From the IMG/VR virus record IMGVR_UViG_3300000439_000022: a stretch of DNA of 64,000 nt. The stretch is one strand, 5' to 3'. The first letter of the stretch is position 1. Every line of letters starts with the position of its first letter. This DNA comes from an uncultured virus (IMG/VR IMGVR_UViG_3300000439_000022) (Duplodnaviria > Heunggongvirae > Uroviricota > Caudoviricetes). Made by a program: the position numbers and the translations under genes. The notes under the pieces are model-generated. The model was given only the letters and a program-made list of their open reading frames with translations, was not told the origin of the DNA and searched no databases. Positions 8,932 through 15,573 of this stretch are shown in pieces.

Positions 8932-9486
8932 ATGAAAAATATTACAAAGATCTTTTTTGATCTTGAATTTACTGGATTACATAAGAACACCACCCCAGTA
9001 TCAATTGGTATTGTAACTGATACTAATAAAAAATTCTATGCAGAATTTAATGATTATGATAAATCACAATGTGATGAATGGATCAATAAAAATGTTATAG
9101 ACAATTTACTATATAATGATTATTTTCATTATCTTCACAATGATGAGGAAAATGATACATTATACATAAAAAATGATTTTCAAACTATTAAACAAGCGTT
9201 AAAAGATTGGTTAAATCAATTTAAGCAAATTGAGTTTTGGGGTGATTGTGTTTTTTGGGATTGGTTTCTCATGGTTGATCTTATTATGGAAGGAAATACC
9301 ATGAGAAAACCGCCAAAAAACTTTACAACAGCGCAACCTTTTGATATATTTACATTATTAAAAACTAAGGGGATTAATCCCAAGGAAAAAAGGCATGTTT
9401 TGTTGGATATGGAGAAACCATTGAATCAACATAATTCACTTTATGATGCTGAGATAACTAAAAAGATTTATGAAAAATATGGGTAA
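8932..9486 (+). CDS. DEDDh 3'-5' exonuclease (Rv2179c/DUF5051-like)
   Basis: FFDLEFTG, SIG, DW and HNSLYDA motifs. Confidence 0.8.
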   Translation: MKNITKIFFDLEFTGLHKNTTPVSIGIVTDTNKKFYAEFNDYDKSQCDEWINKNVIDNLLYNDYFHYLHNDEENDTLYIKNDFQTIKQALKDWLNQFKQIEFWGDCVFWDWFLMVDLIMEGNTMRKPPKNFTTAQPFDIFTLLKTKGINPKEKRHVLLDMEKPLNQHNSLYDAEITKKIYEKYG

Positions 9487-10075
9487 TACACAAAGTGAGT
9501 TTGTTTTAGCTGGTAGAAAAACTGAAGAAAAATTTGTTAATGATTTCGAACAATACGGTGATTATAAAATATCAACGCCAACTCAAGATAGACATGAACA
9601 CTGGGATATTGAAGTAACCCCTTACGATGATTTTCCAAATGAATTAATTATCAAAGATAAAATTAAATATTATTTTGATATTAAATCCATAAAGTCATTT
9701 AATTTCTACGATAAAGGAACACATGAATATATTGATGGTAAAACAGATAAATATCAATATATTGAATGGACAAACCCAGTAGGTAAACCAGGTTATATAC
9801 ATAGTTCTGTAGATTATATAATATTTGAAACTGAAGAAAATTGGCTTTTCATCAAAACAGAAGTTTTAAGGGATTACGCAAGACCTTTCTTTACTGGAGA
9901 TATATGTATATTCGGAAATGTGTTACATGGCGTAAATAAAAGATCTGATGATAACCGCAAATTTAAATATTTCAGAAATCCAGACGGTTCTAAATTCACT
10001 AACAAAGAAGAGATAATGATTTTTAGAACAAGCGAACTTGAGCAAATAACAACATATAAATTGAAAAAAAAATAA
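9470..10075 (+). CDS. putative PD-(D/E)xK nuclease
   Basis: E..F, HWD and FDIKS motifs. Confidence 0.5.
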   Translation: MKNMGNTQSEFVLAGRKTEEKFVNDFEQYGDYKISTPTQDRHEHWDIEVTPYDDFPNELIIKDKIKYYFDIKSIKSFNFYDKGTHEYIDGKTDKYQYIEWTNPVGKPGYIHSSVDYIIFETEENWLFIKTEVLRDYARPFFTGDICIFGNVLHGVNKRSDDNRKFKYFRNPDGSKFTNKEEIMIFRTSELEQITTYKLKKK

Positions 10076-10078
10076 ACA

Positions 10079-10147
10079 ATGAAATTTAATAGTAACGAAA
10101 GAAATATCTGGTTTACATCAGATACACATTAATTTTTCATAAAAATC
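10079..10147 (+). pseudogene. truncated N-terminal copy of the metallophosphoesterase gene
   Basis: MKFNSNERNIWFTSDTH-stop, followed by out-of-frame TTT CAT AAA AAT (FHKN) matching SHKN of the downstream copy. Confidence 0.8.
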
Positions 10148-10180
10148 AGTATATTTATATGTGTATAAAACTATATAAAT

Positions 10181-11068
10181 ATGGAAAAATCATTAAATAG
10201 AATATGTAAAACTTGTGATAAAGTTTTAAAATATAAATCAATTGAAAGTTTTAAATGTTCTGAGAAAGAAGGAACAGAATGTAGGAGCTGCTCAACAAAA
10301 AAATATGTTAAAAGAATTGGTGATGCGAATTATTTGTTAACTGATAATTTAGATACTTATTATTGGGTTGGTTTTATATTAGCTGATGGTCACATCGAAG
10401 ATGGACGGTTATCCATTACCTTATCAGGTAAAGATAAAGAACATTTAAATAAATTATCTGAACATTTATATGTTAAAACACAAGATAAAATTAATAATAA
10501 AAAATATTCGGCTTGCATACTTTCCTTAATGCATAAAGATATTATAAATATTTTTGTTGATCGTTTTGATATTAAATCAAATAAAACTATAAATCCACCA
10601 AATATAAATGTTTTCAAAAACTTGGATTTTGATAAATTATTTAGTATATTTATTGGGTTTACTGATGGTGATGGAAATATTCGTAAATTACATAATAGAT
10701 GCGATTTTCATATAAGAATTAAAACGCATAAAAATTGGTTGCCTGTTTTAGATTATTTTAATAATGTTTTGGATTTAGGTGGACATACAAGAATTAATAA
10801 ATTGGGATATGCTACTTTAGAAATTAGTAATAGTGTATTTTGTAAAAAAATTAAAGAAAAGGCTATTGGTTATAATTTACCTTTCTTGGAAAGAAAATGG
10901 TCTGAAATTGATTTATCCTTTGTTGGTAGAAATGAAAAAGCTGATCAGAATAAAATTGCTATTTTTAGAATGTTAAATGAGGGTTTATCACATAAAGAAA
11001 TTTATAAAAAATTGAATATAAGTAAATCATCCTATTATCAATTAATTAAAAGAAATAATATATGTTAA
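10181..11068 (+). CDS. double-motif LAGLIDADG homing endonuclease with C-terminal HTH
   Basis: YWVGFILADG and FIGFTDGDG motifs. Confidence 0.88.
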   Translation: MEKSLNRICKTCDKVLKYKSIESFKCSEKEGTECRSCSTKKYVKRIGDANYLLTDNLDTYYWVGFILADGHIEDGRLSITLSGKDKEHLNKLSEHLYVKTQDKINNKKYSACILSLMHKDIINIFVDRFDIKSNKTINPPNINVFKNLDFDKLFSIFIGFTDGDGNIRKLHNRCDFHIRIKTHKNWLPVLDYFNNVLDLGGHTRINKLGYATLEISNSVFCKKIKEKAIGYNLPFLERKWSEIDLSFVGRNEKADQNKIAIFRMLNEGLSHKEIYKKLNISKSSYYQLIKRNNIC

Positions 11069-11679
11069 AATTTAAAACAAATACGTCCGAGGCTTCTGCA
11101 AGAAATTTGTGGTTTACCTCGGACACGTGAACACATTATTCTCATAAAAACTTAATTAAAAGCTTAACGACTTGGGAACGTGGTGCCATTCGTGATTTTC
11201 AATCATTGGATGAACATAATCAAACACTTGTTAAGAATATTAATAATACGGTAAAATATGATGATGTTTTATTCATTCTTGGTGATATTGCGTTCGGTGG
11301 TTTTGAAAACGTAAGAAAATTTATGGATCAAATACATTGTCAAGAAAGATATTTGATATTGGGTAATCATGACTCACATATAAAGAATAATCGTGATAAT
11401 TTACAAAATTGCTTCACAAAAGTTTCTAAACAAGAAGATGTTATTATAGATGATGACTTATTCGTTTTATTCCATTATCCTATTCTTGAATGGGAAGCGT
11501 GTCATAAAGGGAGTTATCATCTATATGGTCATCAACATAATTTGCCACAAAACCGTTTTAGCAACGGAAATGGTAGGACGATGGATTGCGGTCTTGACGG
11601 ACATCCAGAATTTCGTCCATACCATTACAATGAAATTATTGAACTACTCAAAAAAAGAGAGATAAAGGTTCATCATTAA
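11062..11679 (+). CDS. calcineurin-like metallophosphoesterase with an in-frame TGA at 11128-11130
   Basis: WFTSDT*THY, LGD, LGNHD, HYP and LYGHQH are all in one frame. Confidence 0.8.
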
Positions 11680-11729
11680 TTTGCTTTTATCAAACCATTT
11701 GATTACTATTGTATTGTAAATAAATATAA

Positions 11730-12518
11730 ATGCGTAAAAAGTTAAGATACGATCTCACACCACCATATGCTATCGAGCAGCTTGCTGAAGTTATGACATA
11801 TGGGTCTGAAAAACATGGTGACAGAACTTGGGAAAACGGTAGAAAGTGGTCAGATGTATTGGCCTGTGCAGAGAGGCATATCAATGCTATAAAACGTGGT
11901 GAGGATTTTGATAAAGAAACAGGTCTTTTGCATTCATCTATGGCAATGACACAACTTGCCTTCCTCACCGAATATTACAAAATATACCCACAAGGTGATG
12001 ACCGAAGACATAGATTCCTTAAACCACCAAAAATTGGTCTCGATATTGACGATACAATAAATAATTTTATTGAGTATTATTGTGATTGGTTTCATTTAGA
12101 TAAACCTCATTTCTGGAGTTTTGATAGAAAAATGGCGGAAAATTTAAAAAAATTAGATAATAATAAAGAATTTTGGTTAAATATACCTCCTAAAATAGAT
12201 CCAAAGTCTTTAGGTTTTTCACCAGATTGCTATATAACAGCCAGATCTATAAGACAAGATTGGACTGAAGAATGGTTAAGTAAATATGGATTTCCATCAG
12301 TCCCTGTTTTTAGTGTTGGCTATGGAAAATCTAAAGTTGATATTGCAAAAAATGAAAATATTGATTTTTTTATTGATGATAGATTTGAAAATTTTGTTGA
12401 ACTAAATGAAAATGGTATTTGTTGTTTTTTATTCGATGCCTTACATAATAAAAAGTATGATGTTGGTTATCGTAGAATTATGGATTTTAATGATTTCGTT
12501 AATAGATTTATAAAATAG
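11730..12518 (+). CDS. DUF5664-like dATP/dGTP diphosphohydrolase fused to a HAD 5'-nucleotidase
   Basis: YGSEKHGDRTW..G...D.ETGLLH, then LDIDDT, YITAR, K and FIDD motifs. Confidence 0.75.
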   Translation: MRKKLRYDLTPPYAIEQLAEVMTYGSEKHGDRTWENGRKWSDVLACAERHINAIKRGEDFDKETGLLHSSMAMTQLAFLTEYYKIYPQGDDRRHRFLKPPKIGLDIDDTINNFIEYYCDWFHLDKPHFWSFDRKMAENLKKLDNNKEFWLNIPPKIDPKSLGFSPDCYITARSIRQDWTEEWLSKYGFPSVPVFSVGYGKSKVDIAKNENIDFFIDDRFENFVELNENGICCFLFDALHNKKYDVGYRRIMDFNDFVNRFIK

Positions 12519-14232: not shown

Positions 14233-15573
14233 ATGTCATACACAGCAATTGTAACAAGATTAAAAGATGTAAGGCCACATTCAAATGCGGATAAAGTGCA
14301 GTTGGCAACTTGCCATGGTAACCAAGTGGTTATTGGATTGGATTCTAAGGAATCTGAATGGGGTGTGTATTTTCCGTGTGACGGACAATTATCTGACGAA
14401 TTCTGTAAAGCCAATAATCTTTATAGGGATAATACTAAGAACAAAAATACTGAAGCTAAGCCAGGTATGTTTGATGATAACCGTAGGGTTAGGGCTCAAA
14501 AGTTTCGTGGTGAAATTTCAGATGGGTTTTGGGTTCCATTACACTATTTTGCATTCATTGAAATAACTGGTCTTGATGTGGAAGGTTACGAATTCGACAC
14601 TTGGAAAGGTGTACCTATCTGTAATAAATATGTTAATCCAGCAACTGTTAAAGCGGCTAAGGAGAATCAACCAAAGAAAGTTCGCAAAGCAAAAACATCT
14701 GAAATGTTCTTTGAACATATCGATACCAAACATATGATTGTTAACATTGATAAAATCGAACCAAACGATTTAATTATCATCACATCTAAGCAACATGGAA
14801 CATCTGGAAGGGTTGGTCACGTGTTGATTGACAGAAAGTTAACAACAATCGAAAAGATTGCAAAGTTTTTTGGTGCCAAAATCAAAGAAAAGGATTGGTC
14901 ATTTCTAAATGGAACAAGAAGGGTTGTTATTGAGGAAAGCTCAGGAACACAATTCCATGATCCAACAATTCGTGATAAAGCATTCAACCTATTTAAAGAC
15001 AACCTGAGAAAAGGTGAAACGGTATATTTTGAAATTGTTGGATATGAGTCACTTGGCAGACCAATTATGGGTATGGTGGATACAACAAAAATTGGTGACA
15101 AAAACTTCACCAAGTTGTATTCAAATGCTGGTGATAATAAACACATGATTTTCAAGTATGGTTGTGCTGACGGTCAATCAGACGTATTTGTTTACCGTAT
15201 GACAATGACAAATGAAGATGGTAAAATGGTTGACTACTCATGGGATGACGTTAAAAGACGTTGTTCTGAAATCGGTGTTAAACACTCACCAGAACTTGAC
15301 CGTTTTACGGTAAATGAATTTAAATTAAGACATAACATCACTGATGACCGTGATTTTAATGACAAATTCATTGAATATGTTAACCAAGTTTCAGATGGTG
15401 CCGACCCAACTGACTCAACACACTGGTCAGAAGGTTCATGTATCAGACTTGAATCAGGCCTTGCTGTTAGGATCTTCAAACATAAGAACTTCAACTTCAA
15501 AGTGTTAGAAGGAATTATTAAGGATTCTGGGTTTATTGACGAAGAGGAAGCACAATCTGAAGTCATAAATTAA
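14233..15573 (+). CDS. RNA ligase (DRB0094/Rnl5-like) with N-terminal OB-like domain
   Basis: HSNADK N-terminus, KQHGTS motif I, FEIVG, EG and FKHK motifs. Confidence 0.75.
   Translation: MSYTAIVTRLKDVRPHSNADKVQLATCHGNQVVIGLDSKESEWGVYFPCDGQLSDEFCKANNLYRDNTKNKNTEAKPGMFDDNRRVRAQKFRGEISDGFWVPLHYFAFIEITGLDVEGYEFDTWKGVPICNKYVNPATVKAAKENQPKKVRKAKTSEMFFEHIDTKHMIVNIDKIEPNDLIIITSKQHGTSGRVGHVLIDRKLTTIEKIAKFFGAKIKEKDWSFLNGTRRVVIEESSGTQFHDPTIRDKAFNLFKDNLRKGETVYFEIVGYESLGRPIMGMVDTTKIGDKNFTKLYSNAGDNKHMIFKYGCADGQSDVFVYRMTMTNEDGKMVDYSWDDVKRRCSEIGVKHSPELDRFTVNEFKLRHNITDDRDFNDKFIEYVNQVSDGADPTDSTHWSEGSCIRLESGLAVRIFKHKNFNFKVLEGIIKDSGFIDEEEAQSEVIN

Follow-up and report, generated by a model that had tools for sequence, protein, structure and literature searches.

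The gene studied here occupies positions 11062–11679 of a 64,000-nucleotide (nt) stretch of DNA from an uncultured virus of the Caudoviricetes (IMG/VR record IMGVR_UViG_3300000439_000022), referred to below in its whole length as the window. Judged from its motifs and homologues, it encodes a calcineurin-type metallophosphoesterase (MPE), and it is interrupted within its D-x-H motif by a stop codon and a short coding gap, which are preceded by an RNA hairpin. On the best reading, a mobile endonuclease cassette carries a programmed short stop-hop (translational bypass), a small-scale counterpart of T4 gene 60/MobA, and the full-length enzyme is probably made by ribosomes that hop over the gap. 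Bypassing itself is already known; what appears to be new is a natural family of hairpin-assisted short stop-hops on endonuclease cassettes.

The leader open reading frame (ORF) starts at ATG 11062, which is overlapped by the stop codon of an endonuclease ORF (10181–11068), and closes with TCG GAC ACG. TGA, ACA and CAT come next, and from this CAT (11134–11136) the frame is open as far as TAA 11677–11679. A previous reading of the window, made from the letters only (the sequence-only reading), had placed a TGA (11128–11130) between the Thr codons ACG and ACA inside D-x-H, and a perfect 8-bp stem, GTCCGAGG (11085–11092) pairing with CCTCGGAC (11117–11124), just upstream; both were verified in the sequence at exactly these coordinates. 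Its description of a GC-rich hairpin set in AT-rich DNA also holds, the G+C content of the window being 30.5%. The upstream copy from which it had reported the stem to be missing is real: at 10079–10132 the sequence encodes MKFNSNERNIWFTSDTH followed by a stop, with the codons ACA TCA GAT and no stem. The catalytic motifs GD, GNHD, H and GHxH, said to be kept downstream, are present. A total of 1901 bases of the locus recur with 100% identity both in record G001 and in an IMG/VR contig of 120 kb, so the insert is not an error of a single assembly.

The gene body matched the phosphoesterase family phrog_547 (E 4.2e-38), and 101 homologues were obtained. The Pfam profile PF00149 reached 17 bits on the body alone, against a cut-off of 21.5, and the homologues do carry PF00149; the nearest solved chain to the MPE was 1xm7_A (E 9.4e-7). 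The motifs GD, GNHD, H and GHxH were at least 90% conserved, and all motifs were among the invariant columns. The Asp and His of D-x-H were one residue apart in all 24 aligned homologues, and extra residues between D-T and H were present in the window gene alone. The Asp is encoded in the leader frame only, and D-x-H is complete only when the gap is skipped.

The survey of relatives was started from the best 80 viral-contig relatives of the MPE protein. One of these 80, L009 (321-kb contig), showed a like leader and stem and a 5-nt gap, in which ACG and ACG flank TA and the frame is shifted. Three scans were carried out, with the stem pattern alone, with W-x-T-S-D-T followed by a stop (5' arm not demanded; run as two patterns, with GAC and with GAT), and with the stem and stop patterns combined on a metagenome collection. 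The search patterns demanded T-R-R at the stop position. Pooled, the pattern scans gave 55 distinct matches, of which 45 were kept as MPE genes and 10 (L191, L196, L197, L199, L206, L207, L218, L226, L236 and L239) were dropped, as they had no such gap together with an MPE frame; most of the latter look like G+C-rich chance matches. Four of the 45 genes (L203, L212, L217 and L238) lie at contig ends and were read by eye; the other 41, which have sufficient downstream DNA, were used where indicated.

All 45 are distinct phage or metagenome MPE genes with W-x-T-S-D-T, a stop, a short gap and a His codon, and all 45 gaps sit at one homologous codon. Gaps of 5 nt were present in 31 genes, of 6 nt in 11 and of 9 nt in 3 (30, 8 and 3, respectively, among the 41 genes; the contig-end sites add one of 5 nt and three of 6 nt). 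Leaders were 18–34 codons long in the 41 genes, typically about 20, and the leader frame, the start codon and the W-x-T-S-D codons were retained in every one of them.

The stop followed directly after a Thr codon in 45 of 45 genes. Among the 41 genes the stop codons were TAA (18), TGA (12) and TAG (11), and all three 9-nt gaps contained two consecutive stops. Take-off codons in the same 41 genes were ACT (22), ACG (13), ACC (4) and ACA (2). The triplet directly 5' of the His codon, scored in the 45 genes, was ACN in 34, ATT in 5, ATG in 2, GCT in 3 and GCA in 1. The 11 non-ACN triplets differ by C-to-U at codon position 2 or A-to-G at position 1, without a single transversion, and among single changes only these two transitions still allow G.U pairing to an anticodon of NGU type. 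Such a pattern is predicted if a tRNA-Thr in the P site seeks a landing site, and is not predicted by explanations at the DNA or RNA level. The conservation among relatives for which the sequence-only reading had called is thus found as a Thr codon, a stop and a triplet pairable by tRNA-Thr in 45 of 45 distinct genes (ACN proper in 34). The base after the stop was C in 29 of the 30 genes of the 5-nt class; C after the stop is the weakest termination context in Escherichia coli.

The 3' arm of the outer stem is formed by the end of a Thr codon and by the Ser and Asp codons that come just 5' of the codon for take-off. RNAfold predicted an inner helix of 6 bp (11096–11101 with 11107–11112) and a minimum free energy (MFE) of −19.7 kcal/mol for the window hairpin (z = −2.6; 3 of 200 shuffles folded equally well). 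Stem covariation, likewise named as a check in the sequence-only reading, was seen in the alignment of the 45 sites, in which the outer stem was 98.9% paired. Pair 1, the closing pair, was GC in 33 sites, AU in 9 and GU in 2, with one site unpaired; pair 6 was AU in 37 and GU in 8; pair 7 was GC in 43 and CG in 2. Two inner-helix pairs also covaried (CG 18, UA 6, GC 1 and CG 16, AU 3, UA 3), and the level of covariation observed at the two outer and two inner pairs was reached in none of 500 shuffles. Slid controls paired at 20–47%, compared with 91–95% for the true register. Stem lengths in the family ranged from 7 to 13 bp.

The 5' arm was read in frame 0 in 31, in frame 1 in 5 and in frame 2 in 5 of the 41 genes, which indicates selection on the nucleotides rather than on the peptide, and the G.U pairs point to RNA rather than DNA as the molecule selected. 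The 50-nt MFE had a median of −21.0 kcal/mol in the 45 interrupted genes (weakest −16.1) and of −4.65 kcal/mol in 60 uninterrupted homologues (strongest −10.6), and the arm-forming codons ACC/ACG-TCG-GAY were found in none of these 60 uninterrupted genes. In the two scans that did not demand the 5' arm, 19 MPE-homologous loci had a stop at this point and every one of the 19 carried the arm; one further MPE-homologous locus (L116) had TGG in place of the stop. A search of the viral collection for the hairpin pattern with an uninterrupted D-T-H gave one contig, with just 6 bp of pairing. On this pattern of substitution the hairpin is under selection as RNA.

Decay of the downstream ORF, which the sequence-only reading had named as evidence against its proposal, was not seen. 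The 37 complete downstream ORFs were all intact (173–220 amino acids), and 4 more reached the contig end without a stop. The ratio of nonsynonymous to synonymous substitution rates (dN/dS) had a median of 0.183 and a maximum of 0.378 over the pairs with computable dS among 68 at 55–99.5% amino acid identity, many of these pairs being saturated. No start codon common to the family was found after the gap. As judged from these comparisons, the downstream ORF is used and is under purifying selection.

The following course of events is proposed. A ribosome that started at ATG 11062 would pause on arriving at the site, where ACG (Thr) would occupy the P site and TGA the A site. The peptidyl-tRNA-Thr would release ACG, the mRNA would be drawn through by 6 nt and the tRNA would re-pair with ACA; decoding would restart at CAT, with nine bases read as one Thr and a product with an intact D-T-H. 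At the pause, the 5' arm would already be outside the ribosome and the 3' arm would occupy positions −8 to −1. The stem would zip from the loop side, pulling out the 5–9 nt that free the 3' arm from the E-site region, and this re-zipping at the mRNA exit could power a short forward slide, in which the peptidyl-tRNA would settle on the first pairable triplet. After a shift of 5–9 nt, the whole stem would lie at the distance from the P site that is typical of a Shine-Dalgarno duplex. The stop-hop between Thr codons with a 5' stem that had been suggested from the letters of the window is supported by conservation, covariation and selection, and the 5-nt gaps (31 of 45) exclude readthrough; we infer that the hop takes place, how efficient it is, that the hairpin drives it, and the immunity to the endonuclease discussed below.

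The endonuclease ORF upstream of the leader scored 22.5 bits with LAGLIDADG_3 (cut-off 22.5; residues 60–96), 21.7 with LAGLIDADG_1 (cut-off 23.1; residues 158–227) and 26.5 bits with HTH_23 (cut-off 24.6), and it matched the endonuclease family phrog_4645 (E 1.7e-13). Its homologue in L093 had a LAGLIDADG score of 39.7. An uninterrupted allele of the MPE gene (P0001, 197 amino acids) was found on a contig of 1310 bases; its residues 17–197 were identical to the window body (181 of 181), and its N-terminus was the same as the 17 residues of the upstream remnant. Together, the N-terminus matching the remnant and the identical body show one allele without endonuclease and gap and one with both, for the same gene body. 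In the window, the approximately 20 bases past the D-T-H of the remnant (10130–10150) weakly resemble the following codons of the gene, with small insertions and an immediate TAA; this degenerate stretch looks as if the cassette had been inserted imprecisely at its left junction.

Homologues of the LAGLIDADG gene end at the leader start in 7 of the 41 interrupted loci and were found upstream of 1 of 79 uninterrupted loci (L008, 31% identical; Fisher p = 0.002). A second endonuclease-like family (NUMOD3, phrog_23051) is located upstream in 7 further interrupted loci, is missing from all control loci and is represented by fragments in 2 more loci. Combined, the two families accompany 14 of 41 interrupted and 1 of 79 uninterrupted loci (p = 6e-7). 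In the window, in L205 and in L214, the endonuclease is preceded by a remnant of the resident 5' end, which breaks off at the His codon. In a gene-body tree of 37 interrupted and 67 uninterrupted genes, a minimum of 14 state changes was required, at least 7 of them on well-supported branches, and several interrupted genes were 0.02–0.1 substitutions per site from uninterrupted ones. As judged from the linkage, the remnants and this tree, the patchy distribution is the signature of a cassette that has repeatedly invaded and been lost.

The leader, the hairpin and the gap would move with the homing endonuclease gene as a mobile cassette. Presumably located in the centre of the endonuclease target, the gap would protect the carrier, and the hop would preserve the enzyme; the sequence-only reading had likewise proposed a disrupted target and a functional enzyme. 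Support for the link to the endonuclease comes from the linkage and from the remnants ending at the His codon. It is quite possible, if still somewhat short of probable, that the leader, the hairpin and the stop-led gap constitute a minimal portable bypass device, reused by unrelated endonucleases (LAGLIDADG and NUMOD3-type) as a self-immunity patch that they copy into each invaded gene at its catalytic motif.

The NUMOD3-type proteins have about 310 amino acids and their genes occupy the place of the LAGLIDADG gene. They show Cys-rich N-terminal repeats, the NUMOD3 motif (in L214) and, read by eye, an H-N-H-like C-terminal stretch. The family phrog_23051, which is of unknown function, was matched by 4 of the 5 NUMOD3-type ORFs, L244 being the exception. 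No gene of this type was present in the 80 control loci. The NUMOD3-type proteins are probably an uncharacterised family of homing endonucleases. Other endonuclease genes are located 3' of the MPE gene in L009, L140, L194 and L227, and a gene of the L009 type is also present in the uninterrupted locus L007. In L113 (approximately 744–1472) the LAGLIDADG gene looks broken, with an in-frame stop before the first LAGLIDADG-like stretch and an ORF of 181 amino acids left, which fits endonuclease decay after fixation. Locus L199 (minus strand, approximately 1440–2100), one of the matches dropped from the count, has a hairpin leader ending in W-F-T-S-D-T and a stop, then a LAGLIDADG-type ORF and then a second MPE head. 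The stem of this second head is a different one, of 9 bp (100-nt MFE −31 kcal/mol), and its His codon is followed by a gap of 7 nt that does not open with a stop. The locus looks like a serial invasion by two cassettes with different gap designs. In L009, a phage SmpB (2036–2467; PF01668, E 3.7e-43), which acts with tmRNA to rescue ribosomes, is encoded directly upstream of the recoded MPE gene.

Other explanations were considered for the interrupted gene. If the gene were inactivated, the insert would be a scar of endonuclease cutting or cassette invasion, translation would stop after 22 codons, and the MPE would be dispensable or a body started internally would suffice. The stop does fall in a catalytic motif, accessory phage genes of this kind are often dispensable, a TTG at 11206 starts an ORF of 157 amino acids, and L009 has, upstream of the gap, a GTG that shares the frame of the body. 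Inactivation is nevertheless unlikely, since all 37 complete bodies are intact at divergences where dS is saturated, with dN/dS about 0.18, since the leader frame, start codon and W-x-T-S-D codons are kept in 41 of 41 genes, and since the hairpin covaries; moreover, a body that lacks the first strand and the D-x-H Asp misses a metal ligand, and no internal start is common to the family. It is very unlikely that the gap is removed at the RNA level, either by a polymerase that skips 5–9 template bases and realigns on the repeated ACN or by excision with endonuclease and ligase, to give a collinear mRNA. All 45 gaps begin with a stop codon, which is relevant to the ribosome only, and the G.U pairing that non-ACN landing triplets keep with the tRNA anticodon is unpredicted by DNA-RNA realignment. 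Rfam gave no intron or ribozyme in 9800–11900, and neither introns of 5 nt nor DNA-dependent RNA polymerases that synthesise discontinuously are known to us. Such removal would be favoured by the position of the hairpin, which ends 3 nt before the repeated triplets in the manner of a terminator stem, by the ACN...ACN repeats, suited to realignment of the RNA 3' end, and by the putative RNA ligase that the phage encodes (14233–15573).

The 6-nt gap of the window is in frame, and decoding of its TGA, whether by readthrough, by a suppressor or as a sense codon in the phage or its host, would give a full-length protein with D-T-x-T-H. For the family, neither readthrough nor a changed code is an explanation, as all three stops are used and the gaps are mostly frame-shifting (5 nt in 31 of 45), and the two consecutive stops of the three 9-nt gaps exclude both. 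In the window itself, ORFs of at least 150 amino acids terminate with TAA (40), TGA (8) and TAG (5), no tRNA gene was found in the 64,000 nt scanned, and the 24 homologues all have one residue between D and H; decoding of the window TGA is highly improbable. Hardly any credence can be given to a self-splicing intron (10130–11136) that carries the endonuclease, with exon 1 at 10079–10129 and exon 2 from TAT 11137. LAGLIDADG genes often reside in group I introns, remnant and body joined match P0001 at every residue, and exon 1 would finish in U. Yet no Rfam intron match was obtained in 9800–11900 even at E ≤ 10 (two sub-threshold snoRNA matches were), the flanks of the endonuclease ORF are just approximately 50 and 68 nt, and no permitted junction register gives a 3'-terminal G to the intron. 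The leader, hairpin and gap also recur in 27 loci in whose flanks of 1.5–2.5 kb per side neither an upstream endonuclease nor an upstream remnant was found, where the gene is therefore readable only from the ATG of the leader itself. Two further mechanisms were rejected: −1 or +2 frameshifting, for which there is no slippery site and which would break the D-x-H spacing, and termination followed by reinitiation, as there is no shared start codon.

Several observations weigh against a programmed stop-hop on a mobile cassette. Take-off and landing codons are identical in only 12 of 41 genes, and the landing triplet is not a Thr codon in 11 of 45. The base after TGA in the window is A, not a notably weak termination context. 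No nascent-peptide signal of the kind acting in gene 60 of phage T4 is conserved: leaders have 18–34 residues, their middle part is read in three frames, and the sole conserved leader peptide is the W-x-T-S-D strand, common to all homologues. Before the hop the 3' arm would lie in the E site and beside it, and a role of the hairpin as driver is thus based on a geometry inferred from other systems. Of the 41 interrupted loci, 27 have no upstream endonuclease gene in flanks of 1.5–2.5 kb per side, and L008 (1760–2449), an uninterrupted MPE gene (C-S-D-P-H) with a LAGLIDADG homologue upstream, is the lone control that breaks the association. The gene-body tree comes from a quick search only. There is also an ascertainment effect: 29 of the 45 sequences came from patterns in which four of the eight stem pairs were fixed. 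Because the sequences are related, their independence is overstated in the shuffle and Fisher figures.

The closest known system is T4 gene 60, where a stop likewise follows the take-off codon and the peptidyl-tRNA re-pairs at a landing triplet beside the resume codon. The gap of gene 60 is 50 nt, versus 5–9 nt in the MPE family, for which bypass is predicted from sequence. Unlike gene 60, the MPE genes have no stop-containing take-off stem-loop, no internal Shine-Dalgarno sequence and no evident nascent-peptide signal. The stem abuts the take-off codon in the MPE genes and lies 9 nt 5' of it in gene 60; the endonucleases are LAGLIDADG or NUMOD3-type in the former and MobA-type HNH in the latter, and the host genes encode a phosphoesterase and a topoisomerase subunit, respectively. 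The MobA/gene 60 mobile element of T4 has been described (10.1101/2022.08.31.505936), and pairing of the exiting mRNA as a forward driver in gene 60 has been argued by Wills, Parsawar and Atkins (10.1101/2024.12.09.627546).

Synthetic stop-hops in E. coli (Weiss, Dunn, Atkins and Gesteland 1987, via PMC5009743) are also alike, in that a stop stands between matched codons and nine bases are read as one amino acid, as would be the case for ACG TGA ACA; +5 and +6 events appear in the title of that article as cited in PMC5009743. As portrayed there, the 1987 stop-hops were low-level events in artificial constructs with no stimulators, whereas the MPE arrangement is natural, occurs in 45 genes and has a covarying hairpin. 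In their 2016 review, Atkins and colleagues (PMC5009743) discuss synthetic stop-hops and the expected shorter natural bypasses; they describe such shorter natural counterparts as long presumed and state that no natural in-frame stop-hop is known at that date. Literature searches returned no bypass in a phosphoesterase gene and no natural stop-hop family.

The large terminase gene of Streptomyces phage Hau3 has two 10-nt gaps (PMC10732093) and resembles the MPE genes in having short frame-disrupting blocks whose two flanks adjoin each other in uninterrupted relatives, an A-site codon that opens the gap and is slow to decode, and local RNA structure. Bypassing at one of its sites was shown by mass spectrometry in E. 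coli (PMC10732093). Its gaps begin with the rare sense codon UUA, for which sensing of the growth state of the host was proposed, and occur in 3 of 100 terminase genes (PMC10732093). The gene and the phages differ from those of the MPE family, and endonuclease linkage is not mentioned in the portion of the Hau3 article available (PMC10732093). The bypass elements of Magnusiomyces capitatus mitochondria are similar in being many short untranslated inserts in coding sequences that are skipped by ribosomes (PMC5009743). They are mitochondrial, belong to another type of element and have no endonuclease cassette. The M. capitatus inserts are 27–55 nt long.

Natural bypassing is rare: gene 60 of T4 with its homologues and the Hau3 terminase have been studied at the bench, and the yeast mitochondrial inserts are also named in PMC5009743. 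The 45 natural variants provide a ready mutational series in gap length, take-off codon, cognate or G.U-compatible landing and stem length. With a simple reporter, this series could show how structure in the exiting mRNA drives the ribosome forward, a question raised for gene 60 (10.1101/2024.12.09.627546). These enzymes come out truncated from gene callers. The influence of homing endonucleases appears to extend beyond genome content to decoding. The coordinates of the features are given in Table 1.

Table 1. Components of the interrupted MPE locus in the window and NUMOD3-type ORFs of related loci.
Feature	Position	Strand	Remarks
Remnant of the 5' end of the resident MPE gene	10079–10132	+	17 codons through D-T-H, then TAA; without hairpin
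LAGLIDADG homing endonuclease gene (predicted), C-terminal helix-turn-helix, 295 amino acids	10181–11068	+	Profile scores
Leader ORF of the recoded MPE gene, 22 codons	11062–11127	+	Ends with the Asp codon of D-x-H and take-off ACG (11125–11127)
RNA hairpin	11085–11124	+	Fold; covariation in 45 sequences; absent from 60 uninterrupted homologues
Coding gap, 6 nt	11128–11133	+	Stop TGA (11128–11130) and landing codon ACA (11131–11133)
MPE gene body, 181 codons	11134–11679	+	Resume CAT (His of D-x-H; 11134–11136) to TAA 11677–11679; phrog_547
NUMOD3-type ORF, L169	525–1463		
NUMOD3-type ORF, L244	549–1487		
NUMOD3-type ORF, L214	494–1471		
NUMOD3-type ORF, L220	541–1470		
NUMOD3-type ORF, L216	356–1261	−	

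Other hairpin-plus-stop gaps were sought throughout the window, and this site alone was returned, together with two ordinary gene boundaries (14219 and 57656). A search of INPHARED phages with 9900–11800 gave just two irrelevant matches of 78 nt, and searches for close relatives of the locus, with the MPE body and with the endonuclease, returned the same phage alone. Downstream of the MPE gene (11730–12518) a protein of 262 amino acids is encoded, whose N-terminus matches the N-terminal domain of dATP/dGTP diphosphohydrolase (PF18909, E 2.7e-26) and which matches phrog_37590 over its full length; enzymes of this type are linked to modified-base DNA in some phages. Also near the locus are genes for an RNA ligase-like protein (14233–15573; PF21189 and PF09414, weak) and for a 3'-5' exoribonuclease-like protein (8932–9486; PF16473).

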